Source of the DNA: an uncultured Gammaproteobacteria bacterium
GTDB taxonomy: Bacteria > Patescibacteriota > Microgenomatia > Daviesbacterales > UBA10151
Assembly (NCBI GenBank): GCA_964640215.1
Contig: CAZXEW010000030.1
Location: 17,920-81,919, forward strand
Reading direction: 5' to 3'
DNA: 64,000 bases
The notes under the pieces were generated by a model, which made no database searches, was not told where the DNA came from, and saw only the letters and a program-made list of their open reading frames with translations. Positions 1,807 through 53,636 of this stretch are shown one piece after another (positions within the stretch are counted from its first letter, which is position 1; every line of letters begins with the position of its first letter). Position numbers and translations under genes: made by a program.

Positions 1807-2425
1807 GAGAAAAGTGTCCGCCATCTCGACGGTGGCGATATTTGGCTACTCCGATACCAAAGAGGATCAACGTCTCTATAAAAGCGTGGTTGAGGTGACC
1901 AAAGGTCTGGCGGAGGCCGGTTATACGGTGGTGGATGGGGGCGGGCCGGGAGTGATGCGGGCGGCGACAGTGGGAGCCAAGATGGGCGGCGGAAAAGTGA
2001 TCGCGGTGACGATGAAGCCAAAGGACATTCCCTATTTTGAAGGTCGGGATCCGGAGAATCTGTTTGATGAGGAGATTAAGACTGACAATTATGTCGAACG
2101 GACACTGGCGATGTTGAGGGAAGGACAGGTCTACGTGGTGTTCAACGGTGGGACAGGGACGATTTCGGAGTTTGGAATGGCCTGGGGGTTGGCCAGGCTT
2201 TATTTTGGCCATCATAAACCGCTGATTTTGTATGGTAAGTTTTGGAAGAAAATTATTAGGGCGTTTCGGGAAAATATGCTGCTGCGGCCTGAGGAGTTTA
2301 AAGTCTATCGAATTGTTGACTCGCCTGATGAGGTGTTGGATGCGATTGAGGATTTCCAAAAAGAGATTGACCGAGGTGAACACACCCACCACCTGGCTGC
2401 CACCAGGGGGGATTTTTCGATCTAG
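1757..2425 (+). CDS. LOG family protein (cytokinin riboside 5'-monophosphate phosphoribohydrolase-like, TIGR00730)
   Basis: GGGPGVM and NGGTGTISE (PGGxGTxxE) motifs. The ATG at 1757 overlaps rpe by 50 nt; an alternative GTG start near 1812 (VSAISTVAIFGYS) is plausible. Confidence 0.7.
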   Translation: MKILSNFGKRPNRSPAERKVSAISTVAIFGYSDTKEDQRLYKSVVEVTKGLAEAGYTVVDGGGPGVMRAATVGAKMGGGKVIAVTMKPKDIPYFEGRDPENLFDEEIKTDNYVERTLAMLREGQVYVVFNGGTGTISEFGMAWGLARLYFGHHKPLILYGKFWKKIIRAFRENMLLRPEEFKVYRIVDSPDEVLDAIEDFQKEIDRGEHTHHLAATRGDFSI

Positions 2426-2573
2426 AAAGGACAGGTGTCAAGTTAGTACGCCTCGAAGATATATTGTGTTCTAACAGTTGGCTGATTGTAGTTACAATGT
2501 TTAGCTATAGCTTATTCTTGTAACCAGGAGATAGATCTTGGATTTTGTTTATTAGAAGGCTTAAGATAGAGGT

Positions 2574-3461
2574 ATGTATCTGTCTGATGAAGAGATTGAG
2601 CAGTTGGAGTTGACGGCTAATACGATCCGCCAGAATATTATTAGGATGCTGGTGGAGGCGGGGTCGGGGCATTCGGCCGGGCCGCTGGGGATGGCTGATG
2701 TCTTTACGGCGATGTTTTTCCATGTTTTGAATATTGATCCATCGAGGGTGGATTGGGAGGAGCGGGATCGGTTTGTACTCTCTTGCGGGCATATTTGTCC
2801 GGTGATGTATGCGACGATGGCCCGTCGCGGTTTTTTCCCGGTTGAGGAGTTGAGAAGTTTGCGAAAATTAGGGACGCGGTTGCAGGGGCATCCACATCGG
2901 GAGTCGTTGCCGGGGCTTGAAACGACTTCGGGGCCGCTTGGCTCAGGGTTGTCACAGGCAAGTGGGATGGCCTTGGTGGCCAAGATGGATCAGCTGATGT
3001 GGCGAGTCTACGTGGTGATGTCGGATGGTGAGCACGATGAGGGTAATACCTGGGAGGCAGTGATGCTGGCGGCTAAGTATAAGTTGCATAATCTGACGGC
3101 GATTTTGGACCGGAATAACATCCAGATTGATGGTTTTACTGAAGATGTGATGCCGCTGGATTCGCTTAAGGCCAAATACGAGGCGTTTGGCTGGTCGGTG
3201 ATCGAGATTGACGGGCATAATATTCGCGAAATAATCGAGGCTTGTGAGAGGGCTAAAACGATTGTCGAGGGTCCGACCCTGATCTTGGCGCACACGATCC
3301 CCGGCAAGGGCGTTGATTTTATGGAAGGCGATTTTCACTGGCACGGCTCGCCGCCGGGGACTCAAGACGTGGCGGGCGATCCACCCAAAGCTGAACAGGC
3401 CCAAATTGCCTTGAAAGAGTTGAGAACGTTAAGGGGGAAGATTAGGAGTGAACATGAATAA
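2574..3461 (+). CDS. tkt: transketolase, N-terminal (TPP-binding) subunit of a split transketolase
   Basis: GSGHSAGPLG TPP-binding motif and a DGEHDEGNTWEA region. ~295 aa matches the split-Tkt N subunit. Confidence 0.85.
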   Translation: MYLSDEEIEQLELTANTIRQNIIRMLVEAGSGHSAGPLGMADVFTAMFFHVLNIDPSRVDWEERDRFVLSCGHICPVMYATMARRGFFPVEELRSLRKLGTRLQGHPHRESLPGLETTSGPLGSGLSQASGMALVAKMDQLMWRVYVVMSDGEHDEGNTWEAVMLAAKYKLHNLTAILDRNNIQIDGFTEDVMPLDSLKAKYEAFGWSVIEIDGHNIREIIEACERAKTIVEGPTLILAHTIPGKGVDFMEGDFHWHGSPPGTQDVAGDPPKAEQAQIALKELRTLRGKIRSEHE

Positions 3462-3759
3462 CGAGAGTATATCATCTCCAAATCGTATAGTTATTTGGCT
3501 AGCAGGGCATCCGGCGATTTTTGCTTTAGTGTTTTTATTTCTCGGGTTGGCCGATGCTTTTTTAGCATTTAAAGGTTTCGGTAGAGCTAGTAATCTTTTT
3601 TTAGGTAGGTGGTACGTAGTACCGAAAAAAGCAACTAAGGAAGATCGAATAGGTTTAAGATTTTTTGCTTTCTTGGAGCTAATTATACCGGTGTTGTTAT
3701 TAATTGGTTTTTTGCAAGATAGATATACAAAGGGATCACTATTGGATATTTTTAAATGA
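3448..3759 (+). CDS. hypothetical small membrane protein (2-3 predicted TM helices)
   Basis: ORF with hydrophobic stretches AIFALVFLFLGLADAFLAF and LELIIPVLLLIGF. Overlaps the tkt N-subunit end by 14 nt. No family recognised. Confidence 0.4.
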   Translation: MNMNNESISSPNRIVIWLAGHPAIFALVFLFLGLADAFLAFKGFGRASNLFLGRWYVVPKKATKEDRIGLRFFAFLELIIPVLLLIGFLQDRYTKGSLLDIFK

Positions 3760-3812
3760 TTAACACCAAAGCTAATTTAAATCCTAAATTGTTTGAGGAT
3801 GGTGTGGAATTT
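3756..3812 (+). repeat. diverged direct copy (~50/55 nt identical) of the 5' end of the transketolase C-subunit gene (4806-4862)
   Basis: atgattaacaccaaagctaatttaaatcctaaattgtttgaggatggtgtgga versus 4806 atgattaatgacaaagctaatttgaatcctaagttgtttgaggagggtgtgga. It encodes MINTKANLNPKLFEDGVE versus MINDKANLNPKLFEEGVE. The 60-aa ORF 3756..3938 diverges after this point and is probably a relic. Confidence 0.6.
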
Positions 3813-3935
3813 TGGTCAAAAAAAATCCGCTTTGGAGCGGATCTCTTTGCGGATATACACGCCGATGCGATTATAGTACCCAGCCCGCGTATTGCTATAT
3901 TAGCAAATTGGCTGTTTGGAAACAAGGAGAAAATA

Positions 3936-4375
3936 TGAGTAGATTAATAGTACTATTTTTGATTTTGTTTTTTGGGGGAGCAATGTTGTTTTTTCTGGTG
4001 ACGAGTGTAATCAAGCCGTATAGCGTGGCTGGCGGAGATGCCGGTCCTTATATGCAGGGGGATATCGTTTTTTCGGCCTCGAAAGATCTTTATTTAATGT
4101 TTGGTCGGTTGAAAGTTGGGGATGTGGTGGTTTATGGACGCCCGCAATTTGATCAAGTTAGTGGGGCCTATATTGGAGATCTTGAATCAATTAGCCAGAT
4201 TATGGCAATGCCTGGACAAAATTTAGAGCCGGATAATCAGGCATTTTATTTTGATAACAAGCCGGTCGGTCAAGTAGTGCCTGGATATTTTTATCTGGTT
4301 CGTTTTGCCAGTGATAAGCGATGGGCAGTTCCGGAGTCAAAAATTAGCCATGTAGTCTGGTTTCCGCAAAAATGA
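3936..4375 (+). CDS. signal peptidase I (S26)-like membrane protein lacking the catalytic Ser/Lys (putative pseudo-peptidase)
   Basis: Good SD (aaggagaaaatATG at 3936) and an N-terminal TM helix. S26 landmarks are conserved: GDIVF, KVGDVVVY, VPGYFYLVRFASDKRWAVP (compare GDNRDNSxDSRYWG). The SGSM serine position reads GGDA and the catalytic Lys position reads YIGD. The longer ORF-track start at 3812 is probably not used. Confidence 0.5.
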
Positions 4376-4803
4376 TAACGACCCTGAATAGACTAAGTTT
4401 GCTAGAGATCGCAAATACCATTGCAGCCTACGTTCTACCTGTTTTTTCGTACACGTACGGTCTTTATTGTGTAGTTATTGGTATAAGAAATGATAATTTT
4501 GCCAGAGTTATATTTGGAACGATCGCTATTTTTGCCGGTTTAATAGTTGGAGCTTTGGAGGTTCGATTGGCCAACGGTATTTCCTATAATGGTCAGGGCG
4601 GGGTTTGGGAGAAAATGTTGTTTTTATCCGCGCTTGGGATAATTTTTGTTCTATTTGCTATATTTTGTTTTGATCCCCAAAAGCAAATAACCAATACTAA
4701 TTCAGTCTCGGGTACAAGGATATTTCGAATAATGTTACTGATACTAGGACTGGTTTTAATTTCATTGTCAGTATTTTTATTTTATTTTAGAGGGGTTATG
4801 TAA
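4372..4803 (+). CDS. hypothetical polytopic membrane protein (4 predicted TM helices)
   Basis: ORF coupled to the upstream gene (ATGA overlap). Hydrophobic segments throughout. No family recognised. Confidence 0.45.
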   Translation: MITTLNRLSLLEIANTIAAYVLPVFSYTYGLYCVVIGIRNDNFARVIFGTIAIFAGLIVGALEVRLANGISYNGQGGVWEKMLFLSALGIIFVLFAIFCFDPQKQITNTNSVSGTRIFRIMLLILGLVLISLSVFLFYFRGVM

Positions 4804-4805
4804 AT

Positions 4806-5828
4806 ATGATTAATGACAAAGCTAATTTGAATCCTAAGTTGTTTGAGGAGGGTGTGGAGATGAAGCCTTCGCGGGATGGGTTTGGGGAGGGGTTGGTGTT
4901 GGCGGGGGAAGAAGACAAAAATGTAGTGGCGCTATGTGCGGATTTGACGGAGTCGACGCGGATGGAGGCGTTTAAGCAGAAATTTCCGGAACGATTTATA
5001 GAAGTGGGGGTGGCTGAGCAGAATCTGGTGACAGTTGGATCTGGGATGGCGGCGGCTGGAAAGATACCGTTTGTTAGTTCGTACGCCACATTTTCGCCGG
5101 GGCGGAATTGGGAGCAGATTCGAACAACGATTTGTTACAACAACCAGCCGGTCAAGATTGTCGGTTCTCACGCCGGTATTTCAGTCGGGCCGGATGGGGC
5201 GACGCACCAAGCGTTGGAGGATATGGCCTTGATGCGGGCGTTGCCCAATATGGTGGTGATTTGTCCGGCCGATGCCATTGAGGCGCGTAAAGCCACCCAG
5301 GCGATTGCCCGGACAAAAAAACCGACCTATTTGCGTTTGTCGCGCGATAAAGTGCCGGTAATAACAACCGAACAAACTCCCTTTGAAATAGGTAGGGCGG
5401 AAGTACTCTTTTCATCACTATCGGATACAGGGTTGAACCCTAAAGCCGATAGTGTAGCCATTATTGCCTGTGGACAGATGGTGTACAGGGCGCTGCAAGC
5501 GGCGAAAGAGTTAGGGGAGCAAAAGATTGGGGTCAGGGTGATTAACTGTCATACCATCAAGCCGTTGGATAAAGAGACGATTTTAAAGGCCGCCCAGGAG
5601 TGTGGGGCGATCGTGACAGTTGAGGAGCATCAGGTGAACGGTGGACTCGGTGGAGCGGTGGCGGAATTGGTCTCTCAACATTGCCCGGTGCCGACTAAGA
5701 TTATAGGTATTGACGATCATTTTGGCGAATCAGGGAATCCTCAGGAATTGCTAAAAAAGTTCGGCTTAACCAAGGAGGCGATTGTTAAGGGCGTTTTGCA
5801 GGTCCTGAGGATGAAACCTAATAATTAA
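4806..5828 (+). CDS. tkt: transketolase, C-terminal (pyrimidine-binding plus C-terminal domain) subunit
   Basis: GFGEGLVLAGEEDKNVVALCADL, FIEVGVAEQNLV and GSHAGISVGPDGATHQALEDMALMRALPNM are typical of the Tkt C-terminal half. Confidence 0.85.
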   Translation: MINDKANLNPKLFEEGVEMKPSRDGFGEGLVLAGEEDKNVVALCADLTESTRMEAFKQKFPERFIEVGVAEQNLVTVGSGMAAAGKIPFVSSYATFSPGRNWEQIRTTICYNNQPVKIVGSHAGISVGPDGATHQALEDMALMRALPNMVVICPADAIEARKATQAIARTKKPTYLRLSRDKVPVITTEQTPFEIGRAEVLFSSLSDTGLNPKADSVAIIACGQMVYRALQAAKELGEQKIGVRVINCHTIKPLDKETILKAAQECGAIVTVEEHQVNGGLGGAVAELVSQHCPVPTKIIGIDDHFGESGNPQELLKKFGLTKEAIVKGVLQVLRMKPNN

Positions 5829-6178
5829 GAAACGACACTGTGTTGAGTTGGGGAATTTAAAACAAGATAATTGACCAAAGGGTCTGAAGGGTGTGGCTGG
5901 GCCAGGTTTGTTAAATATAAAGCTACTTCAAGGGTGGGGTTAGAAAACCAGTCTTCAGAAACCTTGCCTAGCTGTTTAGAAGAGTTGAATAAGCGTCTTT
6001 TGAGCTGTTTTCTAGCTTCGCTTTGGATGTCATAGAGTGTGGCTGAGTCAGGTGTTGGCTGGTATCTGTGGACCCATTCAGTTATGAAAGTTCCAAGAAA
6101 TTTAGTGTCAAATGGTAAAGGATCGACTGTAATCTTGTGTCTTTGGTCGGGGTTAATTTTAACATCGCTGGTGGTCAC
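5825..6178 (-). CDS. hypothetical protein
   Basis: 117-aa ORF whose start overlaps the stop of the upstream minus-strand ORF (ATGA at 6175-6178). No recognisable motifs. Confidence 0.35.
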   Translation of the reverse strand: MTTSDVKINPDQRHKITVDPLPFDTKFLGTFITEWVHRYQPTPDSATLYDIQSEARKQLKRRLFNSSKQLGKVSEDWFSNPTLEVALYLTNLAQPHPSDPLVNYLVLNSPTQHSVVS

Positions 6179-6837
6179 AAATCTGATACAGGTTTTAGTA
6201 AAAAGCGGTGGGAATGTTGTTTACTAGTGCTGAGACTTTTTAGGACAGCAGGTAGATACGACTGGGTATCTCTACGATTAGAGATGATCCCAACTATTTC
6301 CGCAATTGTAGGATAATCGCCGGTGGTATCAACGGTTAATCCGTGTGGTGTAGATATATTAAGCAAGGAGGCTTGACCAAAAGGGTTTATTACAATCGGA
6401 GATTTGGGATAGAGAAGTTGCCAATAATCGAGTGCATCAACTGATCCCAGAAATACTTGATTGGTAGGTACTCCTCTGCTTCTAATTAACGCTTCTGCTA
6501 AGTCAGATATTACCTTGCGAACAAAAAAGCGATTTAATGATTGGAATTGGGCTGATGTCATGGGAAGTGAGACATAGTTGGTATATTCCTGATAGGTGTT
6601 GATGAACTGAGTGGTTCGAGGATACTGATTGAAAAATCGAACCGGATCTGAAAAATCTAATTGAGGTAGCTGATTGCCGGGAGGGAAATTAGGTGCCTGT
6701 TCCACCATTATTTGCAACGTCTCGGCCTCTATAAAGTCGGTGTGGTCTCCAATCAGATTTTGGTCAAAGCTGTTCTTTAATCTGTCTAGTTCAAGGTGCA
6801 TGGTCTGTATTATAATTATAGCTGAGGTATAATTCAA
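6175..6837 (-). CDS. hypothetical protein
   Basis: 220-aa ORF with coding-like composition, the first gene of a two-gene minus-strand pair. No recognisable motifs. Confidence 0.4.
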   Translation of the reverse strand: MNYTSAIIIIQTMHLELDRLKNSFDQNLIGDHTDFIEAETLQIMVEQAPNFPPGNQLPQLDFSDPVRFFNQYPRTTQFINTYQEYTNYVSLPMTSAQFQSLNRFFVRKVISDLAEALIRSRGVPTNQVFLGSVDALDYWQLLYPKSPIVINPFGQASLLNISTPHGLTVDTTGDYPTIAEIVGIISNRRDTQSYLPAVLKSLSTSKQHSHRFLLKPVSDL

Positions 6838-6930
6838 TAATTATAGGTTAGGTGTCCAAGCGATTAGTTGTTTAGATTTTTTGTAATGGTTGACAGAAAG
6901 ATTGAAATCGGTCAGAATGGATTTTGTACT

Positions 6931-7725
6931 ATGGCTGAAACTCCACATGTTGAATATCGGCAAGGTTTTATGTCGACGCCGGCGGCGATTTTGGTCGGAT
7001 CGATTTTGATTTCGGTATCGATTTTGCTGAGTAGTGGGATTATCCGAATTAAGGGTGTGACGCCGAATTCTCCGGTTTTGGGAGAGGCGACGACTGGAAG
7101 CGGTGCGGTCGCGCAGGCATCTGCGGCACCAGCGGCGGCTGAGAATGCAGGTCCAGTGAAAGTATCATTGGCAGATAGTCCGGTATTGGGCGACAAAAAA
7201 GCCAAGTTAACAATGGTTGAGTTTTCGGATTATGAATGTCCGTTCTGTAAGCGTTACTATACTGATACCTACAGCCAGTTGAAGAAAGATTATGTTGATA
7301 CCGGCAAGATGAAGATAGTTTTTCGCAACTTGCCGCTGTCATTTCACCAAAATGCCCATAAAGAAGCTCAGGCAGCTCTTTGTGCCAGGGATCAAGGCGG
7401 GGACACGGTTTACTGGAAATATCACGACGAGATGTTTACGCGAACCACCTCAAATGGAACTGGTTTAAGTTTGGATCAGTTGCCGGTGATTGCCAAGGAA
7501 ATCGGTCTCAATGGGGATACTTTGAAAAGCTGCATCGATTCAGGCAAGTATGTTCAAAAGGTTGACAAAGATTTGGCCGATGCCGGGACTTATGGTGCGA
7601 CTGGAACGCCTAGCTTTTTTATCGGCAAAGATAACGGTGACGAGAGTATGACAGGGACTATTGTGGTGGGTGCTCAACCGTTTAGTGCTTTTAAGGCGCT
7701 GATTGATCAGCAATTGGCCCTGTAA
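6931..7725 (+). CDS. DsbA/BdbD-like thiol:disulfide oxidoreductase (thioredoxin fold), membrane-anchored
   Basis: CPFC active-site motif inside VEFSDYECPFCKRYY, a C-terminal GATGTPSFFIG motif (DsbA cis-Pro loop region), and an N-terminal TM helix. The start is chosen at the in-frame Met before the TM; 6970 or the ORF-track start at 6868 are alternatives. Confidence 0.65.
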   Translation: MAETPHVEYRQGFMSTPAAILVGSILISVSILLSSGIIRIKGVTPNSPVLGEATTGSGAVAQASAAPAAAENAGPVKVSLADSPVLGDKKAKLTMVEFSDYECPFCKRYYTDTYSQLKKDYVDTGKMKIVFRNLPLSFHQNAHKEAQAALCARDQGGDTVYWKYHDEMFTRTTSNGTGLSLDQLPVIAKEIGLNGDTLKSCIDSGKYVQKVDKDLADAGTYGATGTPSFFIGKDNGDESMTGTIVVGAQPFSAFKALIDQQLAL

Positions 7726-7786
7726 TTAGGTGTCAATACTAGATTAAACTCTTCCGACAGTTCCATTTTTAGGCTACACTGTAAAT

Positions 7787-8764
7787 ATGTTTGATTTGAT
7801 TTCGGTTGGCGACTCGGTAATAGATTTATTTGTACCGCTGATTGATGCGGAAACCCGGAGTGAGGATGGGCAGCGAAAATTGATACTAAGGAGTGGGGAT
7901 AAAGTGCCGGTTGGGCCATCGACGTCACTAATTGGGGGAAATGCGGCCAATAACGCTGTTGGATCGACACGGCTGAAGTTGAATAGCGCCATTTACACTA
8001 ATGTTGGGGATGATGAGGATGGGCAGCGGATTGCCGATAATTTCCGGAGCGAGGGGGTTGACTGCCGGTATTTGGTCAAAAATAAAGAGATGTTGTCGAA
8101 TCACCATGTCGTGCTTGATTTTAAGGGTGAGCGGACGATTTTGGTTCACCATCAGCCCTGGAAGTTAGAGTTGCCGGAATTAGAGCGGACAAAATGGGTC
8201 TATTTGACCTCGCTGTCGCCCTCGTTTGTGGATACTAATTTTATCGAACAGCTGATCAACTATCTCGAACGGACGCGCTCGAAGCTATTGTATAATCCGG
8301 GGACTTTCCAGATTAAGCAGGGGGTTAAGAAAAATCCGCGATTGTTGTCTTTGACAGAGGTTTTTATTGTTAATAAGGAAGAAGCCAAACTGGTGTTGGG
8401 TTTTGAAGAGGGTGAGAAAAAAGAGATGAAAGAGCTGCTGACAGGATTGCATGATCTGGGGCCGCGGCAGGTAGTTGTAACAGACGGTGAGAACGGCTCG
8501 TGGGGGTTTGACGGGGAAAATTTTTTTGAACTAGGTTTGTTTCCAGCTAATTTAGTCGAGATGACCGGGGCCGGTGATGCATATGCCACCGGGGTGTTGG
8601 CTGGATTATTACACGGGAAGAGTTTAGACTCTGCCATGCGCTGGGGTGCGGCAAATGCGGCTGGAGTAGTAGAGCAGGTTGGTCCACAGGCGGGGTTGCT
8701 GACTTATGACCAGATGCAAGAGCGATTGAAAGCTAATTCGAAGATTGTAGCCAAAAAGATTTAG
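7787..8764 (+). CDS. PfkB-family carbohydrate kinase (ribokinase-like)
   Basis: GAGDAYATGVLAGL PfkB signature 2 plus an N-terminal GGNAANNAVG region. The ribokinase role is only suggested by context (rpiB, rpe, tkt nearby). Confidence 0.8.
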   Translation: MFDLISVGDSVIDLFVPLIDAETRSEDGQRKLILRSGDKVPVGPSTSLIGGNAANNAVGSTRLKLNSAIYTNVGDDEDGQRIADNFRSEGVDCRYLVKNKEMLSNHHVVLDFKGERTILVHHQPWKLELPELERTKWVYLTSLSPSFVDTNFIEQLINYLERTRSKLLYNPGTFQIKQGVKKNPRLLSLTEVFIVNKEEAKLVLGFEEGEKKEMKELLTGLHDLGPRQVVVTDGENGSWGFDGENFFELGLFPANLVEMTGAGDAYATGVLAGLLHGKSLDSAMRWGAANAAGVVEQVGPQAGLLTYDQMQERLKANSKIVAKKI

Positions 8765-9457
8765 AATTAGGGTCCGTAGAATTAGGGTCCGACCCTTAGG
8801 TTTCAAGGGTCAATTCCCCTAAGGCTTCTTCAGTATTTTCTAGATAGTCTTCAACAAAATTTTCATACGAAAGGCAGTCTCTTAGATAGATATTGTGCGC
8901 AGTTTTGAAAAATGACAAAATAAAATCAGGTTTCACCCAATCAGCTTTAGCTAAAGATAGATAGTAACGATAGCTTGAAAAATCATATGTTTTAGGGTCG
9001 GACCCTGGATAAGGGTTAAGATGGATATAACGTGACAGGTGTAACAGGTAGATATCTTCCAGAATTATTGTTGCTTTATATTTTCCTTGAAATAACGTGC
9101 CTACCCGGTTGTATTTGAGATTGAAGAAAGTTGCATATTTAGTGCAGACGGCACGCATAAGCTTTGTTATCCCATCCTTAGTGATTTGATGTAGCATTAA
9201 ATGGAAATGATTTGGCATTAAGCAAAAGGCAAGTAAATTTACCTCTTGAGCTAGAGATTTAGGGTCCGACCCTAATGTTGGGTCAAGGTAATGTTTCAAA
9301 TAACTTAGGAAGATGGTGTAATCTTGCCTATCAAGAAAGATAATACGTTTTTCTACGCCTCGATTGTAAACATGGTAATAACTATTTTCGGAGAATTGTC
9401 TGATAGTGTTTTTTGCTGGCATTTGTTTTTTTGTTATCGGCTTTAGGGTCCGACCCC
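8765..9457. repeat. cluster of five copies of a 13-nt REP-like palindrome AGGGTC(C/G)GACCCT: 8765-8778 (imperfect), 8784-8796, 8994-9006, 9261-9273, 9445-9457
   Basis: Palindromes read directly. Two copies flank the RAYT gene on each side and two lie inside its CDS, each encoding G-S-D-P. Confidence 0.6.
8796..9422 (-). CDS. REP-associated tyrosine transposase (RAYT; IS200/IS605 TnpA-like HUH Y1 transposase)
   Basis: YHVYNRG N-terminal motif, HFHLML HUH motif, and a catalytic Tyr region QGKYKA. 208 aa. Flanked by REP palindromes. Confidence 0.75.
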   Translation of the reverse strand: MPAKNTIRQFSENSYYHVYNRGVEKRIIFLDRQDYTIFLSYLKHYLDPTLGSDPKSLAQEVNLLAFCLMPNHFHLMLHQITKDGITKLMRAVCTKYATFFNLKYNRVGTLFQGKYKATIILEDIYLLHLSRYIHLNPYPGSDPKTYDFSSYRYYLSLAKADWVKPDFILSFFKTAHNIYLRDCLSYENFVEDYLENTEEALGELTLET

Positions 9458-9525
9458 AGGCAGGAGTGCATGTGCGTAGTTTAGCAGTAATGGTGAGTTT
9501 GTCAAATTGTGATATTATCTACTGG

Positions 9526-10389
9526 ATGAGTGCACGGGAGTGGTTGGAGAAAGCTAAAAGGGAGAAATTTGCGATTGGGGCCTTTAATGTGGCCAATTTG
9601 GAGACGTTTAAGGCGGTGGCGCAGGCGGCGGCGAATAAAAAATCGCCGGTGATAATTGAGAGCTCGCCGGGGGAGACGGAATGGATGGGGGCGGAAAATG
9701 TGGTTGATTTGGCGCGCAATTATTCGTTAGAATGCGGGGTGCCGATTTTGGTCAATTTGGATCATTCGTTGGAGGTCAAAGATTGTTTGAGTGCGATCGA
9801 GGCGGGTTATGATCTGATTCATTTTGATGGCTCGAAGTTGCCAATTGTGGAAAATATCCGTTTAACCAAACAGGTGGCCGAAGCGGCGCATGCTAAGGGT
9901 TTGACGGCCGAGGGGGAGCTTGATCATATCGGTGGATCGTCCGAGGTTCATGCCGGGGCGGCAGCTGATGAAGCCAGCAAAGTACCAATGACTGAACCAG
10001 AAAACGCTAAGAGGTTTGTTGAGGAGACGGGGGTGGATATATTCGCGGCTTTTGTGGGAAATGTCCATGGATTATATACCGGTGGAATGAAAAAATTGGA
10101 TGTGGAGCGGGTTAAGGCGATTGCCGAGGCGACGGGGGTGTTTTTGTCGCTGCACGGATCCTCGGGCATACCCGAGGATCAGGTTAAGGCCGCGATTCAA
10201 AACGGAATCGTCAAGGTAAACCTGAACTCTGAAGTTCGCCAGGCTTTTAAGGATGAGTTAGAAAAAATTCTCCAACAAAATCCGGATGAGTATGCGATGT
10301 ATAAAGCCCTCCCTCCGGTGGTTGATGCAATCCGCCAATTAGTAGAACACAAAATCGACCTTTTCGGATCAGCCGGGAAAGCAGTTTAA
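9526..10389 (+). CDS. fba: class II fructose-bisphosphate aldolase
   Basis: NLDHS, HFDGS, GNVHG and LHGSSG motifs of class II FBP/tagatose-BP aldolases. The start is placed at MSAREWLEKAK; the ORF-track start at 9406 lies over the REP/RAYT region. Confidence 0.85.
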   Translation: MSAREWLEKAKREKFAIGAFNVANLETFKAVAQAAANKKSPVIIESSPGETEWMGAENVVDLARNYSLECGVPILVNLDHSLEVKDCLSAIEAGYDLIHFDGSKLPIVENIRLTKQVAEAAHAKGLTAEGELDHIGGSSEVHAGAAADEASKVPMTEPENAKRFVEETGVDIFAAFVGNVHGLYTGGMKKLDVERVKAIAEATGVFLSLHGSSGIPEDQVKAAIQNGIVKVNLNSEVRQAFKDELEKILQQNPDEYAMYKALPPVVDAIRQLVEHKIDLFGSAGKAV

Positions 10390-10560: not shown

Positions 10561-13479
10561 TTACTTGGTGCTTATTAAAGTAGATTTTGAGGAAACAGAA
10601 TAAAGATCTTGTCCATTTTCAGACAAATCGTTTTTACCAACATAATTTTTCGTGCCTTTAAAAGTCTTTGTATAAATACCAAAATCCCAGTTGTTCTTAA
10701 TTATATTATTTGCGACCTTATTACTTGAGGCATCATCAACAAAATAAACACCAACTTTGTTATTTGTAATATTGTTGTCATTGATCTGGTTCGAATCTGT
10801 TTTTACATAAACTGCAGTTTGGTTTTGGCTAAAAATATTATTTGAAACAGTATTGTTATCTGCTTGGCCGTAAAGATATACTCCATATTGCTTATTTTTA
10901 CTAAACTCATTGAGAGTAATTTGGTTTTTTTGGGATCTGGTGTTGGCTCTGAAGCCCCTCTGATTCCCGTATATTTTATTATTCTTAACTATATTATTGC
11001 TTGAGTCATAGAAGGCAATACCGTCTTTATTACCATAAACGGTATTATTTTCGACGATATTACTATTTGAATCCCGATCCAACATTATTCCGTGGAGTTT
11101 ATTGTTGTAAGAGAGGTTATTTCTAATAATATTATTAACACATCTTTTAGAGAAAATTATTCCGTGGTTGCCATTGTTGCGAGAAATATTATTCTCAACT
11201 AAAAATCCATTTGAATCATCGTGTGGATCCAGTCCATATTGGATGTTTTCATAAAACTCATTACCTGCCCAAACCATACCAACCGCACCGTATGTATATG
11301 CTCCGAAGTAATTATGGTGGAATTTTGAATTTTTAACCTCTCCTGTTACAAAATACTTACCGGCTGTTCCATCTGGTAATTTCCAGGAAACTCCATAAGA
11401 TGAACCATCCAAACTTGAATGAGGATCAAATCCTAAGTAACCCAAATCAGAATTTAGAATATCCATTCTTGAGCTATATTTGGCCATAATAAAACTTCTG
11501 CCATCTTTGTCATTCTTATCATAGTCATTTTTAGTCGTGTCCCAAGAAGATATTCTGACCCCATCAATGTGGACATTTCCGCCCCATGTTCGAATAGATA
11601 CAAAGTTCCCAGGCTCACTCTTAAGTTTTAACCATTCAACCTCATCCTTACTTAAGTATAAAGAGACTCCTTTTTCAATCTTAAGGTTGGCTTTGAGTAG
11701 CCACTCTTTAGGTTTGGTTTGTTCAATTTTGTCATTTCCTAATTTTGTCTGTAAATCGGCCAGTTTTATTGGGTTACCTCTGCCAAAAACATGAATTGTG
11801 TTATCTTCCTTATCATAGATAATCTCAAGCTTTGTGACTTTCTTAATTGTGTATGAGTTGGTATGAGGAGACTCTAAGCTAAATTGTTGATAAGGGATGC
11901 TGAGGATTGTTCCTGGCTCAATTCTGTTCCAATTAGGTAAGATATTTAAGTTTGCTTCAACTATATCTTGAACATCTGTATCAAAAGCAACCGCAATTCC
12001 AGATAGGATATCTCCCTGCTTAACAACATATTTTTTTATTAACAAACCATTATCATTAATATAAGTTTTAGAGTCTAAATCACTAACTTGCTCTAATTTA
12101 ATATTGCTGTCTAAAACTATATTCTCAGCCTGTATTTTAGTATCTACCAGATTTTGAGCAAGCTGTCTATTCGGTTCCGGAAAAGTGAGGCCCGTTTTCT
12201 GGGAATAAACAAGTCCAGTCAGAACAAAAAGCAGTATTGCAGACATAGCATATGCTGGAACATAACTTAAAAATTTAAATTGAGGTAACCTGCTTTTATC
12301 CCATCGGGTAATCCAACTTTGAGTATTTAAAGTAAACAGAGCATATATTTTCAAAATTGCTGAAACAAATGTATACAATACATAAAAAGGTAAAATAGTT
12401 ACATGAGCGGGTCTTCTTTGTAAATGAGGGTAAATTTTAATAGCTCTTGAAATAAACCACCAAATGAAAATTAAACCTGCTCCTAAATATAGACTTAAGT
12501 AAAGAGATATTAAAAAGTAGATCGGGCTTAAAATCATGGCAAAGGCTTGAACAACTTTGTCAATTTGGTAAAACGCTAGAGCTGGATGTCTAAATGGCCA
12601 GCCTTGAAAAATTGCTCTTAAGTCTGCCCTTAAACTATTTCTAGTCCATCTGAGCCTTTGTTTCAAGTAGGATTTCAAATCAGTCATTCCCGGGGTATAT
12701 ACTCTGGCATTCTTTTGATAGGCAACCTTCCAACCACTAGCTAAAACTAAATAGGTTAATCTCTTGTCGTCTCCCGCGATAACTGGCTTACCCATAAAAG
12801 TCTCATTCACCAGCTCATCACACATTGGTAAAACAACACTTCTTCGATAAAATGCTGTTCTTCCAGATAAACAAACTAGAGCATCTCCAGCTGCAGCTAA
12901 AAAAGTAAATTCCTCGCAGTATCTTAAATCCAATTGAATATCAAACAATTTTTGAGCTAAGGTATGGGTTTGTAGCACGTTCTGTCTAGTTGTGACTCCG
13001 GCAACTTTAGGGTCAATAAACGGAGGTAGTGAGTTTTTCAGAACTGTTTCTGCCCAGAGAGTGTCTGAATCAACTAAAGCCACCAGCTCTCCCTTAGCAA
13101 TTTTAATTCCGTCAGCCAAAGCTGCTCTTTTACCAGGTTTTTTAGTAATAATTAGTTGTGTGTGAGAATAAGTTCTAGAAAATTTTCTAAAGATCTCTAT
13201 CGATTGTTTATCAGTGTAGTCAATTACAGCAATAATCTCAAAAGGAGCATTTTCTGCCCAAGAAAAAAGAGCTGCTTTAAATATACTTGGGTCTTCGTTA
13301 TAAACTGGCGTAATAATAGAAACAGACGCTTTGAAGTTATTCTTTTTAACTTTGTAAAATGATCCAATAACTTTTTTAACAACCCAAGTAAGCCAACGCC
13401 AAACTCCAATAATTCCGATTGGTAAATAAAATAGTATTATGGATAAGTAATGTTGGATGTAGGACAGTGTATTTTCCAT
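10561..13479 (-). CDS. membrane GT2 processive synthase of the HAS/NodC/chitin-synthase type, fused to a LysM domain and a C-terminal right-handed parallel beta-helix (PbH1) domain
   Basis: N-terminal TM helix. GT-A motifs: VDSDTLW (DxD), AGDDKRLT (GDDRxLT of HAS/NodC/CHS), QRLRWTRNS (QxxRW). Multiple TM helices follow the GT domain. A LysM domain (YVVKQGDILSGIAVAFDTDVQDIVEANL) is followed by ~12 NNxIxxN/GIxx beta-helix repeats. Confidence 0.8.
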   Translation of the reverse strand: MENTLSYIQHYLSIILFYLPIGIIGVWRWLTWVVKKVIGSFYKVKKNNFKASVSIITPVYNEDPSIFKAALFSWAENAPFEIIAVIDYTDKQSIEIFRKFSRTYSHTQLIITKKPGKRAALADGIKIAKGELVALVDSDTLWAETVLKNSLPPFIDPKVAGVTTRQNVLQTHTLAQKLFDIQLDLRYCEEFTFLAAAGDALVCLSGRTAFYRRSVVLPMCDELVNETFMGKPVIAGDDKRLTYLVLASGWKVAYQKNARVYTPGMTDLKSYLKQRLRWTRNSLRADLRAIFQGWPFRHPALAFYQIDKVVQAFAMILSPIYFLISLYLSLYLGAGLIFIWWFISRAIKIYPHLQRRPAHVTILPFYVLYTFVSAILKIYALFTLNTQSWITRWDKSRLPQFKFLSYVPAYAMSAILLFVLTGLVYSQKTGLTFPEPNRQLAQNLVDTKIQAENIVLDSNIKLEQVSDLDSKTYINDNGLLIKKYVVKQGDILSGIAVAFDTDVQDIVEANLNILPNWNRIEPGTILSIPYQQFSLESPHTNSYTIKKVTKLEIIYDKEDNTIHVFGRGNPIKLADLQTKLGNDKIEQTKPKEWLLKANLKIEKGVSLYLSKDEVEWLKLKSEPGNFVSIRTWGGNVHIDGVRISSWDTTKNDYDKNDKDGRSFIMAKYSSRMDILNSDLGYLGFDPHSSLDGSSYGVSWKLPDGTAGKYFVTGEVKNSKFHHNYFGAYTYGAVGMVWAGNEFYENIQYGLDPHDDSNGFLVENNISRNNGNHGIIFSKRCVNNIIRNNLSYNNKLHGIMLDRDSNSNIVENNTVYGNKDGIAFYDSSNNIVKNNKIYGNQRGFRANTRSQKNQITLNEFSKNKQYGVYLYGQADNNTVSNNIFSQNQTAVYVKTDSNQINDNNITNNKVGVYFVDDASSNKVANNIIKNNWDFGIYTKTFKGTKNYVGKNDLSENGQDLYSVSSKSTLISTK

Positions 13480-13496
13480 AAGCGTAAAAACTTAAA

Positions 13497-14414
13497 TTAA
13501 AGAGGTAAACCTGTTGTGAAAGATGAGTGAATTTTTCTAGAAGGAGTTTTGGTGTTTTTAAAGGTATTATTTACTTCTATTGTTGTCTCAAGTAGATTTG
13601 CTTCTAAACCTTTCTTTTGCGCCCAGGCTAAGAATGCCTGAGTGTCTTTTGGTAAACAAGCACCAGAGAAAGGACCAAAATCTCGGGTACCATATTTAGG
13701 GTTCCAAATACCCTCGCAGCTTTTAGTTGTAAGCTCAAACATATGGTCTGAATCAACCTTTATAGCTTTAGCAATTGTTCTCATTTCGTTAAAGAAGGTA
13801 ATCTTGAAGGCGTTAAAAAGATTATGAACGTATTTTTGCATCTCAGCTTCTATTAGGGGAACCCTGTAAATTGGACAGTTGAATTTCTGATACACTTTTT
13901 CAAGTAAGTCGCCAGATCTTTTATCAAATTCTCCAATAACAACTACCCAAGGATTTGCAAAATCTTCGACTGAGGATACTTCTCTTAAGTATTCTGGATT
14001 CATACAAACTCCAAAATCTATACCTACTTTTTTACCGGAGTATTTTTCAAGGATTTTAACAATGCTTTCGGTTGTTCCTGGAGGTACAGTACTTCTAACC
14101 ACAGCTAAGTGGTATTTTGGCATTTTTACAAGTCTTTTGCCCAAGTCTTTAGCAGCAAGTTTTATATAATCTAACTGGATTTCACCGTTAAGAGTAGGGG
14201 TTGGAACAGTAAATATAGATATATCGGTATTATTTGGTATATCAGAATCACTTGCCAGGTTGGCTATAAAACCCTGATCTTTAAGTTTCTCAATAATGTT
14301 TTGATTTACATCAATAAAGTTTATATCAAAACCCTTGGAGATAAATCCTTTTCCTGTAGCCTGGCCAACTACACCGGAACCAATGATTGATAATTTAAGT
14401 TTCTTATTTCTCAT
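13497..14414 (-). CDS. UDP-glucose/GDP-mannose 6-dehydrogenase family protein, lacking the C-terminal UDP-binding domain
   Basis: IGSGVVGQATG Rossmann motif and the catalytic-Cys motif GACLPKD (GGxCxxKD). Only 305 aa, and the stop lies 18 nt upstream of the GT2 gene. Confidence 0.7.
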   Translation of the reverse strand: MRNKKLKLSIIGSGVVGQATGKGFISKGFDINFIDVNQNIIEKLKDQGFIANLASDSDIPNNTDISIFTVPTPTLNGEIQLDYIKLAAKDLGKRLVKMPKYHLAVVRSTVPPGTTESIVKILEKYSGKKVGIDFGVCMNPEYLREVSSVEDFANPWVVVIGEFDKRSGDLLEKVYQKFNCPIYRVPLIEAEMQKYVHNLFNAFKITFFNEMRTIAKAIKVDSDHMFELTTKSCEGIWNPKYGTRDFGPFSGACLPKDTQAFLAWAQKKGLEANLLETTIEVNNTFKNTKTPSRKIHSSFTTGLPL

Positions 14415-14558
14415 TTTATTTTCTAATTTTCTATGAGCTAACTAATACAGACATATATTAAAGATTTGAGCCTAAAATATATCCAGTAGTAATTATTACA
14501 AGCTATTCTACTATAACACCAATAGTTTGTCAAGGATTAATTATAGGATACTCTTTGA

Positions 14559-15842
14559 TTAGAGTATGATCTTGCTGAGGTAGATTGGGAAGTTTAGTTC
14601 TTTAGTGGAAAAAAGAATTAAGCTGTTTTGGGTTTTAGATTGAGATAAAATATTGGGAAAAAAGGAGTCCTTCGCAATTTGAAGTTTTTCTGAGAAGGAC
14701 GCTTCAGCTTCTTTTTTAACGACTAAGTAGGATGTGCCTTCATGTGGATTATCCTCAGGAAATTCAGATTCTTTATCTGTCTCAAGCCAGGTAATAAATA
14801 AACTATTATCTATACTTACCCCTATCTGAGGAAAGAATTGAAAAGTTGCGGATTCTGACACAATTTCTGATTTTGACCAATCTTTGCCATCAAATTTTGC
14901 GTACCTAACTTGTGTTTTTCTATTACTTAGGCTAAATTCTCTCCAAGTAAGGTGTAGCCTATTTTTTGAGTCTAGTGTGACAGATAAGTGTCTGTTGTCT
15001 TGGGAGGAATTAGAAATATTTTTCCACTCAGACCAGCTGCCCCCTTCGTTTAAAGATATTGAATACCAAATTTGAGAATTATTGAGATTTTGTTTGGAGT
15101 ACATAAAAACATAAAGCAGTCCATTTTTATCCTGAATAATTGTTGGCCTGGATTGAGATCCTGATGATAAATTTATATCTTTCCAACCGGACCAATCTTT
15201 CCCATCCTTTGATTTGGAAAACTTTATCAGCTGATTATTGCTATCTTTATCTTTTCCCTCCCAGACTACAAATAAGTTATCATCCCCACCTACCAAAATA
15301 TTAGGGTGTTCCTGCCAGAGAGTTTGGTTTTTGTACCCTTCTACATAGGAAATATTAACGGCTTTCGACCAAGTTTCCCCCCCATCCTGAGAGCCAGAAT
15401 ATTTGATCTGTCGATCCCCGTCCGGGTTATTTGAATCTGCACCATACCAAATGAGATGTAGGTTATCCCTGGAATCTATAGCAATAGAGGGTACTCTTTG
15501 GCTAGCTTTATTATCAACAATGGAGACATTCTTTATAAAATCTACTTTATAGGACACGTCCCCATCTTTTTTTAATTTGGCGACAAAAATTTCATAATAA
15601 TTATTTGCTTTTTTTCTGTAAGCTACAAAAATATTCCCTTTAGAGTCAGAAACCAGTTTTTTTTGCCCACTAAAACCTAGTGCTTTATAGTCTTCTGAGA
15701 CATCGACTAAGATATTATTTATCATAAAATCTTTAGTTTCTTTCATACTTACATCCGTAGATACTTGTTTTTGAGCTGTTTTAAAAGATATCAATATAGC
15801 AGTCAGAACAACAATAATTAGTATTGGGATAATTTTTAGCAT
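14559..15842 (-). CDS. BNR/Asp-box repeat (sialidase-like beta-propeller) protein, N-terminally membrane-anchored
   Basis: Asp-box repeats SQDGGETWS, SKDGKDWS, NEGGSWSEW, DGKDWSKS. N-terminal TM helix. Confidence 0.6.
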   Translation of the reverse strand: MLKIIPILIIVVLTAILISFKTAQKQVSTDVSMKETKDFMINNILVDVSEDYKALGFSGQKKLVSDSKGNIFVAYRKKANNYYEIFVAKLKKDGDVSYKVDFIKNVSIVDNKASQRVPSIAIDSRDNLHLIWYGADSNNPDGDRQIKYSGSQDGGETWSKAVNISYVEGYKNQTLWQEHPNILVGGDDNLFVVWEGKDKDSNNQLIKFSKSKDGKDWSGWKDINLSSGSQSRPTIIQDKNGLLYVFMYSKQNLNNSQIWYSISLNEGGSWSEWKNISNSSQDNRHLSVTLDSKNRLHLTWREFSLSNRKTQVRYAKFDGKDWSKSEIVSESATFQFFPQIGVSIDNSLFITWLETDKESEFPEDNPHEGTSYLVVKKEAEASFSEKLQIAKDSFFPNILSQSKTQNSLILFSTKELNFPIYLSKIIL

Positions 15843-32483: not shown

Positions 32484-32951
32484 ATGAAGTGCTGCTACTG
32501 CGCAAGTGTACTTAGCAAAGTTATTGACAAGCGAGAGGTTCAATCAACAGGGGAAATAAGGCGGCGGCGGGAGTGTTTGAAATGCCATAAACGGTATACG
32601 ACCTATGAGCGGGTGGCGGGTTTGGAGTTGATGGTGATCAAAAGGGATGGTCGCAAGGAGGCCTTTAGCCGGGATAAAATTCGCAGTGGGTTGGAGAGGG
32701 CATTGGAGAAGCGGCCCGGGATCGGTCAGGTGGGTGAGATCGTCGAGCGGATTGAGGCGAAGCTGAGAAGCAAAGGTGAAAAGATGGTAGCCTCGAAAGT
32801 GATCGGTCAGGCGGTGCTGATTGAGCTGCGAAAGATAGATAAAGTGGCTTATTTGCGGTTTGCGTCGGTTTATCGCTCCTTTCAGACGATGGGAGATTTT
32901 TCGAAGGAGCTGGAGTCGCTGGATAAGGTTCATCATAGCGAACATATATGA
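32484..32951 (+). CDS. nrdR: transcriptional repressor NrdR (zinc ribbon plus ATP-cone)
   Basis: MKCCYCAS...RRRRECLKCHKRYTTYER zinc ribbon followed by an ATP-cone. Overlaps the nrdJ start. Confidence 0.85.
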   Translation: MKCCYCASVLSKVIDKREVQSTGEIRRRRECLKCHKRYTTYERVAGLELMVIKRDGRKEAFSRDKIRSGLERALEKRPGIGQVGEIVERIEAKLRSKGEKMVASKVIGQAVLIELRKIDKVAYLRFASVYRSFQTMGDFSKELESLDKVHHSEHI

Positions 32952-35900: not shown

Positions 35901-36568
35901 GGTGCAAGGGTGTGACTTATATGCGGGATGGTTCGCGTCTGGGGGTGCTAAGTCATATTGAAGAGAAAAAAGAAGCTGAGCCGGAGGTAGCTGCGCAGCC
36001 GGTGATCATGCATCGGCCGATGATGTTGGCCGGCCGAACTTATAAGGTTGAGACTCCGATGGGCGAGGCATTTATGACTATTAACCGGGACGATCAGAAC
36101 AACCCTTACGAGGTGTTTGTTAATATTGCCAAAGGCGGGATGCATACCAGTGCTGACGCTGAAGCGATCGGCCGGTTGATCTCGATGAATTTGCGCTACT
36201 CAAAGGGCAGTCGAATTGATACGGCCAGGCGGATTGTGTCCCAGCTGCGGGGGATCGGTGGTTCGCACAGTGTCGGGTTTGGTAAAGACCGGGTGATGAG
36301 TTTGGCGGACGCGGTGGCGAAAGTGCTGGCTGAAGAGATTGATTTAGCGACGGGTCAAGGTCAAACACCCGAGCCGGAGATGATGTCACTTCCATTGACT
36401 GTCGAGAGTCCGGCGGTCGATGAGGCAGTGTCTGCGCCCGCTGTTGAATTTAAAAATGGCTTGGCCAAGCACAACCATGCTGATCTTTGTCCGGAATGCG
36501 GCGGGGCCAGCCTGGTTCGGGAAGAGGGTTGCTCGAAATGCTACTCCTGCGGATATTCTAAGTGCTAA
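32948..36568 (+). CDS. nrdJ: ribonucleoside-diphosphate/triphosphate reductase, class II (adenosylcobalamin-dependent), containing an intein
   Basis: Catalytic block NP|CGEQPLGAWAVCNL split by an insertion. C-terminal zinc ribbon CPECGG...CSKCYSCGYSKC. 1206 aa including a 374-aa intein. Confidence 0.9.
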   Translation: MKKIQKQRAVYQQISPVTRSVQDSGEIRPRVDKQILGKKFTPWFTPEVSSPTQLEGVRQKVFLDRYANKDEKGQPIEQTPEEMWTRVANGIAEMEKTPKLKRYWAEQFYKAMEGFKFVPGGRILSGAGTGYQVTFFNCYVIPSPEDSRRGIMENIMHTVEIQSRAGGVGVNLSSLRPNGARVRKVNGTSSGPVNWAALYSTANHDVIQHGGSRRGALMLMLHDWHPDLVEFIHVKEDLSKIPGANLSICVSDKFMKAVKEDGEWTTRFPDHSDPEYDELWDGDIEAWEAKGKPVMIFATYKARDLWRQICTAAWQSAEPGLHFLERSNKQSNTFYFEKLLSTNPCLTGDTWVHTNDGPKQVSDLIGTEFLARINGQNYLSGPGGFFKTGTKQVIRLQTVEGYHLRLTRNHLIKRVLPTASRQIETEWCEAGQLKIGDQILLHDHRANPYWTGEYNDKEGYLMGLLVGDGTLKTDKAVLSVWGGENVHNLAYIPGVHEVMQFALQNAFSVPHRRDFTGWMAIPGRNEHRLALGYIKHLAHQLGMFPGRKTITPEVEKTSSDFYRGFLKGLFDADGSVQGLDGRISVRLAQSDLGFLEAVQRMLLRLGIFSHIYKNRRKAGLKLLPDGKGGYKEYATRAQHELSITKDNVEVFNDLIGFANSKKATDLANKIRAHSKRGFYSERFVVRVESLETEAKTEVFDVKIPGVNYFDANGIVAHNCGEQPLGAWAVCNLGAMNLAAYVKDGQFDYTGLDADVRVAMRFMDNVVNANYYFYDINEEKAKEIRRTGIGTMGLGDALIKMQMPYGSAESLAEIEKIYKTIRDAAYETSADLATEKGPFPMFVAEKFAKGHFIRQLSPSLQAKIAKQGIRNAVILTQAPTGTTSLVSGVSSGIEPVYDFAMIRKDRIGEHVIYHPLYQKWMEENPGASQKPDYFVSANDLTPDEHVQVQALIQKYTDSSISKTVNAPNNHTIEDVEKLYMDAYDLGCKGVTYMRDGSRLGVLSHIEEKKEAEPEVAAQPVIMHRPMMLAGRTYKVETPMGEAFMTINRDDQNNPYEVFVNIAKGGMHTSADAEAIGRLISMNLRYSKGSRIDTARRIVSQLRGIGGSHSVGFGKDRVMSLADAVAKVLAEEIDLATGQGQTPEPEMMSLPLTVESPAVDEAVSAPAVEFKNGLAKHNHADLCPECGGASLVREEGCSKCYSCGYSKC
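33980..35101 (+). mobile_element. intein (374 aa) with LAGLIDADG homing-endonuclease domain inserted in the NrdJ active-site motif
   Basis: Starts with Cys (CLTGDTWVHT), ends with HN followed by the +1 Cys of the CGEQ motif. Two LAGLIDADG motifs: LMGLLVGDGT and LKGLFDADGSV. Confidence 0.8.
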
Positions 36569-53559: not shown

Positions 53560-53636
53560 TGGCACCGCTAGCGGGATTCGAACCCGCGATTTGTTGAATG
53601 AGAATCAACTGTCCTAGGCCTCTAGACGATAGCGGC
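53560..53636 (-). tRNA. tRNA-Glu (anticodon CTC), CCA encoded
   Basis: The reverse complement gives GCCGCTATCGTCTAGAGGCCTAGGACAGTTGATTCTCATTCAACAAATCGCGGGTTCGAATCCCGCTAGCGGTGCCA. There is a 7-bp acceptor stem (G1-U72 wobble). The D-arm GTCTAGAGGCCTAGGAC matches E. coli tRNA-Glu. The anticodon stem is GTTGA/TCAAC with loop TTCTCAT, and the T-arm is GCGGGTTCGAATCCCGC. Confidence 0.8.

Follow-up and report, generated by a model that had tools for sequence, protein, structure and literature searches.

The two genes of the split transketolase found in the 64,000-nucleotide (nt) stretch analyzed here (the window; contig CAZXEW010000030.1, positions 17,920 to 81,919) are tktN, for the N-terminal, thiamine-diphosphate-binding subunit, and tktC, for the C-terminal subunit. 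Both lie on the same strand and are separated by 1344 nt, within which a homologue of the S26 signal peptidases is encoded that has lost the catalytic dyad. Comparison with relatives shows, at the level of sequence, that this S26-like gene has long belonged to the operon and did not arrive recently as a cassette, its family being small, fast-evolving, and habitually placed beside transketolase or another pentose-phosphate gene. Taken as a whole, we consider it moderately probable that an old-resident S26-like gene, with a direct repeat left beside it as the scar of a local rearrangement, encodes a protein that binds peptides in the manner of SipA and is co-expressed with transketolase.

In this split enzyme, the part matching PF00456 (tktN, 2574-3461, plus strand, E 1.5e-60) and the part matching PF02779 and PF02780 (tktC, 4806-5828, plus strand, E 6e-44 and 2.5e-31 for the pyrimidine-binding and C-terminal domains, respectively) are in separate genes. 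The gap is filled by four plus-strand open reading frames (ORFs), with overlapping start and stop codons between successive ORFs, and not by the two or three genes counted in an earlier interpretation made from the letters of the window (the sequence-only reading). ORF1 (3454-3759, 101 amino acids, aa) encodes a two-transmembrane hairpin protein; ORF2 (3756-3938, 60 aa) is a relic of the tktC start fused to a 42-aa tail; ORF3 (3935-4375, 146 aa) encodes the protein of signal-peptidase fold, with a predicted N-terminal membrane anchor; and ORF4 (4372-4803, 143 aa) encodes a membrane protein in which three to four segments are hydrophobic. ORF1 shares its first 8 nt with the end of tktN, each of the three junctions from ORF1 to ORF4 is an ATGA overlap, and tktC starts 2 nt past the ORF4 stop. 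Strong ribosome-binding sites are present upstream of ORF1 (AGGAG) and 7 nt upstream of ORF3 (AAGGAG). A promoter-like site precedes tktN (2471-2498), and no plus-strand terminator-like or promoter-like site was found within 3448-4805. Because such internal sites are absent and the start and stop codons overlap, tktN, ORF1 to ORF4, and tktC would most likely form one transcription unit and be co-translated. Also, an identical tktN-ORF1-ORF2-ORF3 arrangement is observed in an independent contig of 1766 nt (L001, run ERR3478687).

The assignment of ORF3 to the S26 family, already made in the sequence-only reading, is borne out by the Pfam model PF10502 (32.4 bits, cut-off 22.9), whereas its score against the NCBIfam signal-peptidase-I equivalog model TIGR02227 (32.4 bits) is below the cut-off of 47. 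On these profiles, ORF3 is an S26 homologue but not an equivalog. A single-sequence search of the PDB gave no match, and a word-indexed search of 5.8 billion proteins recovered ORF3 itself alone. An exhaustive HMMER search with ORF3 returned 29 relatives at E values up to 0.001 among 1.84 billion cluster representatives, with identities of 23-35%, and a profile of 26 family members matches Staphylococcus aureus SpsB (E 1.6e-6) and Escherichia coli LepB in the PDB.

When the dyad positions are assigned by profile alignment to SpsB, ORF3 has GGDA in place of SGSM, with Asp35 at the position of the catalytic Ser, as had been proposed; however, the position of the catalytic Lys is occupied by Ser87 and not by Gly as that proposal had it. 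Both the Ser nucleophile of box B (SxSMxPT) and the Lys of box D (KRxxGxPGD) are therefore lost in ORF3. Among the 26 aligned sequences, the Ser column contains Asn in 12, Asp in seven, and Ser in three, with Glu, Lys, Pro, and Ala in the others, and the Lys column contains Ala in 14, Gly in 11, and Ser only in ORF3, being never Lys. In comparison with the type I signal peptidases (LepB, SpsB, and SipS; MEROPS S26; PF10502, TIGR02227), ORF3 lacks the Ser nucleophile, the Lys base, and the GDNxxxSxDSR box, and domain II is absent. Since the Ser/Lys dyad is missing from ORF3 and the Lys from all 26 aligned members, the alignment confirms the earlier view of ORF3 as a pseudo-peptidase, and not an active signal peptidase. 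A canonical lepB gene was not detected in the window.

The AlphaFold model of ORF3, computed with the family alignment (predicted local distance difference test 94, predicted template modeling score 0.83), shows an N-terminal helix formed by residues 3-25, where the hydropathy peak (residues 4-22) is also located, followed by a beta-rich domain with a core fold like the S26/S24 beta-barrel. The single N-terminal anchor and the distribution of charges suggest that the S26-like domain would face outward. The closest solved structure is that of SipA, a non-catalytic S26 homologue also called LepA (PDB codes: 4n31 and 4k8w), which acts as a pilus assembly factor in Streptococcus pyogenes and has in common with ORF3 an S26 core with a replaced dyad. 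In SipA, Asp48 and Gly85 take the place of the dyad, the peptide-binding cleft is kept, and the protein is essential for pilus polymerization (PMC4049620). By analogy, ORF3 would most likely serve, without catalytic activity, to bind peptides on the outer side of the membrane, holding rather than cutting a segment of a secreted or surface protein, and its link with transketolase would be one of co-expression and not of a shared reaction. Nonetheless, the two proteins differ in several respects. SipA belongs to a Firmicutes lineage and ORF3 to Patescibacteria, and SipA is not reached by sequence searches from ORF3. Moreover, the SipA gene is part of a pilus islet with sortase and pilins, whereas ORF3 and most of its relatives are encoded within or beside transketolase genes; the neighbors of ORF3 are tktN, tktC, and small membrane ORFs, with no sortase/pilin cluster, and a sortase-like gene is found upstream in one of the twelve genomic contexts described below (L088).

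These contexts are those of eleven further family members and of the window, and in 10 of the 12 a pentose-phosphate gene adjoins the S26-like gene. In seven of them, the gene is located between tktN and tktC: the window, two Daviesbacteria-like loci with transketolases about 75% identical (L083 and L090), L084-86, L082 (Woesebacteria), L091, and L093. In three others, it is directly upstream of tktC (L087), of an unsplit (fused) tkt of 623 aa (L092, 3001-5316), or of zwf, the gene for glucose-6-phosphate dehydrogenase (L094, 2302-3552). The unsplit tkt and the zwf cases suggest a linkage to pentose-phosphate genes in general, and not to the split junction alone. The idea of a one-off cassette is not supported by this comparison, since homologues 23-35% identical are found in the same slot of six other lineages and no duplication of the tktC 5' end is present in any carrier relative's locus. 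This is the result that the sequence-only reading had itself named as telling against it, although between the window and these carriers the S26-like gene alone is shared. The layout of L091 is comparable (tktN, a 109-aa ORF, the S26-like gene, ORFs of 104 and 112 aa, and tktC). In a neighbor-joining tree of TktN, the carriers fall in two clades and are interspersed with non-carriers. Also, a YIG(D/N) insert is common to ORF3 and the L083 and L090 proteins. The G+C content at third codon positions (GC3) is 0.26-0.38 for the intervening ORFs of the window, compared with 0.57-0.62 for tkt; however, in 7/7 carrier loci measured the GC3 of the S26-like gene is lower than that of the flanking tkt genes, so the low G+C content of the segment is a trait of the family and not evidence of recent import. 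With the conserved tkt flanks as sites of recombination, lateral exchange of the gene may also have taken place.

The second feature of the junction is a direct repeat of the tktC start, whose diverged upstream copy had been pointed out in the sequence-only reading and is real. The upstream copy (3756-3809, plus strand), a relic of the first 18 codons of tktC, and the resident copy (4806-4859, plus strand), which corresponds to the genuine first 18 codons, are identical at 47 of 54 nt (87%), with a spacing of 1050 nt and 996 nt lying between them. They encode MINTKANLNPKLFEDGVE and MINDKANLNPKLFEEGVE, respectively, so 16 of the 18 residues are kept, with four synonymous and three non-synonymous base differences. 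When the first 120 nt of tktC are locally aligned with their own upstream 3.5 kilobases (kb), the score is 76 in the window and at most 41 in 79 other tkt loci, the background being about 20-31. This shows that the direct repeat is not a product of chance. A conserved, in-register N-terminal extension, M(I/L)N..LNPKLFDxD(V/I)E, is found in the TktC of 64 relatives, and therefore the 18-codon stretch is a genuine part of TktC. Moreover, both copies of the window have the lineage-specific FE(D/E)GVE where relatives have FDxD(V/I)E, which indicates that the two copies are each other's closest relatives. Past codon 18, nucleotide identity is 38% and then 33%, a random level. ORF2 codons 19-41 are weakly similar, in register, to the TktC profile (P about 0.005), in a post-hoc test; the FG..L residues that match are encoded within the hairpin described below. 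A relic of the tktN 3' end was looked for upstream of ORF3, where the score of 32 is to be compared with a shuffle maximum of 33, in a region confounded by the ribosome-binding site. DNA-pattern scans of metagenomes gave no match for the lineage-specific repeat pattern and 64 matches, all unrelated, for the WYP...NPKLF adjacency pattern.

The comparison with other loci supports that the repeat marks a rearrangement, as had been claimed, although not the arrival of the S26-like gene as a single cassette; likewise, the large separation of tktN and tktC stands, but the intervening segment begins with ORF1 and not with the repeat. The 54-nt repeat would have been left by a local rearrangement in the stretch of tktC formed by its first 18 codons. 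In this case, an intact start of tktC must have been retained or provided, and the displaced copy would have been left upstream; the tktC 5' end would be the sole part of the region tolerating a break, given that an intact start is retained. One-sided illegitimate recombination, a local duplication, or an older tRNA-bearing insertion are candidates for its origin. Recombination between the two repeats would allow a precise loss of the intervening 1 kb, the predicted deletion junction being the end of ORF1, one repeat copy, and then ATGAAGCCTTCG.

The other three ORFs of the junction differ in how far relatives can be traced. ORF1, with hydropathy peaks at residues 21-39 and 66-84 and a GC3 of 0.26, has no Pfam or NCBIfam match and only weak relatives. 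A profile of junction ORFs from L004, L014, and L091 ranks it first among 446 ORFs of the window (E 6.7e-4, the next being 0.28), which suggests that ORF1 probably belongs to a loose family of two-transmembrane hairpin proteins resident at the tktN-tktC junction; BLASTP between ORF1 and the L004 junction ORF gives no match, and the small profile alone connects them. A decayed first copy of the S26-like gene in the ORF1 region, as a tandem-duplication model would have it, was also considered and rejected, no signal being found in any frame. The ORF1 start is itself part of a recurrent pattern. Within the codons for the conserved TktN C-terminus, ...SEHE* (GAACATGAATAA or GAGCATGAGTAA), lies an ATG at which the next gene starts, not only in the window (MNN...) but also in L004 (MNN...), L084 (MNK...), L090 (MSK...), and L091 (MNK...). 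The following gene thereby overlaps tktN by 8 nt and finds a ribosome-binding site already in place within it. ORF2 matches no Pfam or NCBIfam family, lacks a clear ribosome-binding site upstream, and is probably a by-product reading frame. ORF4 has no Pfam match above noise and was the only protein recovered with itself among the 5.8 billion searched; apart from a marginal match (E about 1e-3 against a small database) with the junction ORF of 109 aa in L091, it is, by these searches, an orphan unique to this genome.

The tktN-tktC junction was surveyed in 76 relatives' loci holding both genes. In 49 of them the two genes abut, in agreement with the arrangement that had been taken as the normal one; however, gaps of more than 90 nt are found in the other 27, most of them holding diverse small ORFs, often for membrane proteins. 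For example, a two-transmembrane family of 83-89 aa (MRxxExxLKLxFLG...; pairwise E 1e-12 to 1e-43) is found at the junction in five Paceibacteria-type genomes (L041, L042, L046, L062, and L068), a conserved protein of 172-176 aa, NUDIX-like as judged from its motifs, in L050 and L051, and gene pairs that by eye resemble toxin-antitoxin systems in L038 and L063. Variable loci between conserved genes that are exchanged by homologous recombination are known from other bacteria, such as the capsule loci between dexB and aliA. As in these and in homology-facilitated illegitimate recombination, a lineage-variable slot is bounded by highly conserved sequences, here the 3' end of tktN and the 5' end of tktC, and tktC 5' relics lie beside the cargo in at least three loci. 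A difference is that the tkt slot is inside an operon, between the subunit genes of one enzyme, and is known here from sequences. A broader proposal, which we regard as speculative and rather unlikely, is that the junction (or the pentose-phosphate operon) of Patescibacteria would be a recombination-bounded slot in which small membrane-protein genes are gained, swapped, and lost, with the tktC 5' duplicates allowing reversible excision. The dyad-less S26-like family and the two-transmembrane hairpin ORFs would then be an undescribed cell-surface module, its expression tied to the pentose-phosphate flux, for instance to the processing of host-derived sugars or nucleosides.

A terminator-like hairpin on the minus strand (3818-3848; stem 3825-3830/3837-3842, a run of seven to eight U at 3818-3824) is located inside ORF2, directly after the tktC relic, which breaks after codon 18. 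Its minus-strand fold has an energy of -16.2 kcal/mol (z -4.6, with none of 200 shuffles as stable), compared with z -1.4 for the plus strand. Two Daviesbacteria loci have related layouts. In L004, tktN is followed by a two-transmembrane ORF, a relic with its break after codon 17, a terminator on the minus strand, the degraded remains of a minus-strand tRNA-Glu(CUC) gene (5747-6000), and tktC; in L006, by a terminator, an intact minus-strand tRNA-Glu(CUC) (5842-5913), and tktC. The terminators of both fold much like the hairpin of the window. A shorter tktC 5' relic, with its break at codon 11, is found in L012; the relics of L004 and L012 differ in length, and unrelated sequence follows each. 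The parallel between the relic and antisense terminator of the window and the layouts of L004 and L006 suggests that relic and hairpin are fossils of an earlier insertion carrying a minus-strand gene. The single tRNA of the window is a tRNA-Glu(CUC) as well (53560-53636, minus strand).

An extension of this idea is that the relic and the antisense terminator are what remains of an older insertion of a minus-strand tRNA-Glu gene at codon 17-18 of tktC, with the segment of the S26-like gene and ORF4 having replaced or displaced the tRNA later, in which case the repeat would be older than the present cargo and uninformative on the arrival of the S26-like gene. We hold this as a possibility of fairly low probability. 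The order of elements in the window is that of L004, from the two-transmembrane ORF to the relic and the hairpin, and ORF1 matches the profile that includes the L004 ORF; yet no tRNA remnant is detectable in 3850-3934, where the alignment to the tRNA-Glu of the window is not above shuffles, and the hairpin regions of the window and L004 do not, by sequence alone, resemble each other significantly. Moreover, L004 falls in a different TktN subclade, and each relic is closer to the tktC of its own genome than to the other relic, which would need gene conversion or independent events. The original picture, a foreign 1-kb cassette of the S26-like gene and a membrane gene recently inserted in the tktC 5' end, with the 54-nt repeats as its boundaries, would explain why the repeats flank exactly 996 nt, and it agrees with the low GC3 of the segment, with the abutting tktN and tktC of most Daviesbacteria, and with the position of ORF3 outside the L083/L090 cluster in the family tree. 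Nonetheless, it seems unlikely to us, in view of the repeat-free homologues in the same slot of at least six other lineages, of the low GC3 of the S26-like gene in all seven carrier loci measured, and of the lineage-specific codons of both copies, which indicate that the second copy did not come from a distant donor. Also, neither Pfam nor NCBIfam finds a recombinase or transposase domain in ORF1 to ORF4, the nearest transposase-like gene (Y1_Tnp, 8796-9422) is 4 kb off on the other strand, and no inverted repeats bounding the segment and no phage or plasmid match to it were found. Direct repeats of the target are present at both ends, as in a mobile insertion; at 54 nt, they are much longer than usual target-site duplications.

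The remaining alternatives concern function. That the S26-like and small membrane proteins form a membrane module serving transketolase or its pathway, for example by thiamine or pentose uptake or by anchoring the enzyme, is a minority alternative that we consider doubtful. Inheritance of position at the junction cannot explain the unsplit tkt and zwf cases among the ten contexts beside tkt or zwf, and many Patescibacteria have small membrane ORFs at the junction, among them the 83-aa two-transmembrane family in five loci. However, no transporter family matches ORF1, ORF3, or ORF4, neither a thiamine pyrophosphate riboswitch nor any other Rfam family was found in 2400-6000, the predicted topology places the S26-like domain outside the cell, and most relatives are without these genes. 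The conservative reading of the linkage would be co-expression, the operon being strongly transcribed and the genome small. Still less probable is that ORF2 is a functional micro-protein, in which the N-terminal peptide of TktC has been kept to bind TktN or to mimic TktC, for example regulating the assembly of the split enzyme. In its favor, the ORF is intact with ATGA overlaps on both sides, residues are kept in the first 18 codons and identity is random downstream, and TktC proteins throughout Patescibacteria strongly conserve this peptide; against it, the stretch has only 54 nt, with substitution counts too small to prove selection, a clear ribosome-binding site is lacking, the tail has no homologue, and the L004 and L012 relics are of other lengths. 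Finally, Asp35 and Ser87 occupy the two dyad positions, and three family members have Ser at the nucleophile position, so ORF3 could be imagined as a protease acting through other residues, such as Asp35 with Ser87. This is very improbable, because Ser87 is unique to ORF3, the nucleophile position varies among seven residues, and Lys is found in no member; SipA does not need its equivalent Asp and showed no peptidase activity (PMC4049620).

Several observations weigh against the explanation preferred here, that of an old-resident gene beside a local scar. The 87% identity of the repeat contrasts with random-level flanks, so a simple old duplication needs gene conversion or selection. The S26-like gene is present in none of 80 species-representative tkt loci (fetched with TktC), and this absence, together with the unique ORF4 and the weak relatives of ORF1, indicates a patchy presence. 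In two of the twelve contexts, both on short contigs, the gene is not beside tkt: in L088 it is between a sortase-like C-terminus and ruvX, and in L089 it follows a zeta-toxin gene and precedes what by eye could be the 3' end of a minus-strand tRNA, at the edge of the contig. Also, the neighbor-joining tree of the family, which is star-like, does not group ORF3 with the proteins of L083 and L090, its nearest relatives by transketolase. Moreover, a domain predicted to face outward and a cytoplasmic transketolase would leave the linkage, one zwf neighbor included, mechanistically unexplained.

Regarding the source of the DNA, the window can be assigned to an uncultured, Daviesbacteria-like member of Microgenomates (Patescibacteria). 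Upstream of tktN are the pentose-phosphate operon genes rpiB (695-1141) and rpe (1141-1806), and a LOG/SLOG-family gene (1757-2425) lies between rpe and tktN, the order rpiB-rpe-LOG-tktN...tktC being typical of Microgenomates. TktN is 60-77% identical to proteins from metagenome-assembled genomes of Daviesbacteria and other Microgenomates, and the best matches of TktC, up to 78% identical, are from Candidatus Daviesbacteria and other Microgenomates genomes of this kind. Downstream of tktC (5825-10389), the order found in relatives (tktC, class I aldolase, pfkB) is broken. Here, two minus-strand ORFs without assignment (5825-6178 and 6175-6837) are followed by a DsbA-like thioredoxin gene (6868-7725), pfkB (7787-8764), the transposase-like gene already mentioned, which is of the IS200/Y1 type (8796-9422, minus strand), and a class II fructose-bisphosphate aldolase gene (9406-10389). 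Farther on, a low-GC island on the minus strand (10561-15842; GC 0.34-0.35 and GC3 0.27-0.31, compared with a window mean GC of 0.446) encodes a 972-aa protein with GT2 glycosyltransferase, LysM, and beta-helix/NosD repeats, a short UDP-glucose dehydrogenase-like ORF, and a BNR/sialidase-like protein. In a distant part of the window, the gene for the large subunit of ribonucleotide reductase (32948-36568, plus strand, 1206 aa) is split by an intein that bears a LAGLIDADG homing-endonuclease domain, as indicated by Pfam matches to Intein_splicing, Hint, and LAGLIDADG_3 inside Ribonuc_red_lgC.

Non-catalytic S26 homologues are already known from the pilus islets of Gram-positive bacteria, SipA being the example, whereas no description of a dyad-less S26 family fixed in or beside transketolase genes of Patescibacteria was found in the literature searched. 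For annotators, the locus is of practical use because ORF2 could be miscalled a gene and ORF3 an active signal peptidase. It also illustrates how repeated insertions are tolerated by an operon encoding an essential enzyme in two genes, and which scars these leave. Patescibacteria are ultra-small and host-attached, and most of their membrane proteins are uncharacterized. If the linkage is functional, the S26-like family would point to a hitherto unknown connection between a protein-handling step at the surface of these cells and their central sugar metabolism.

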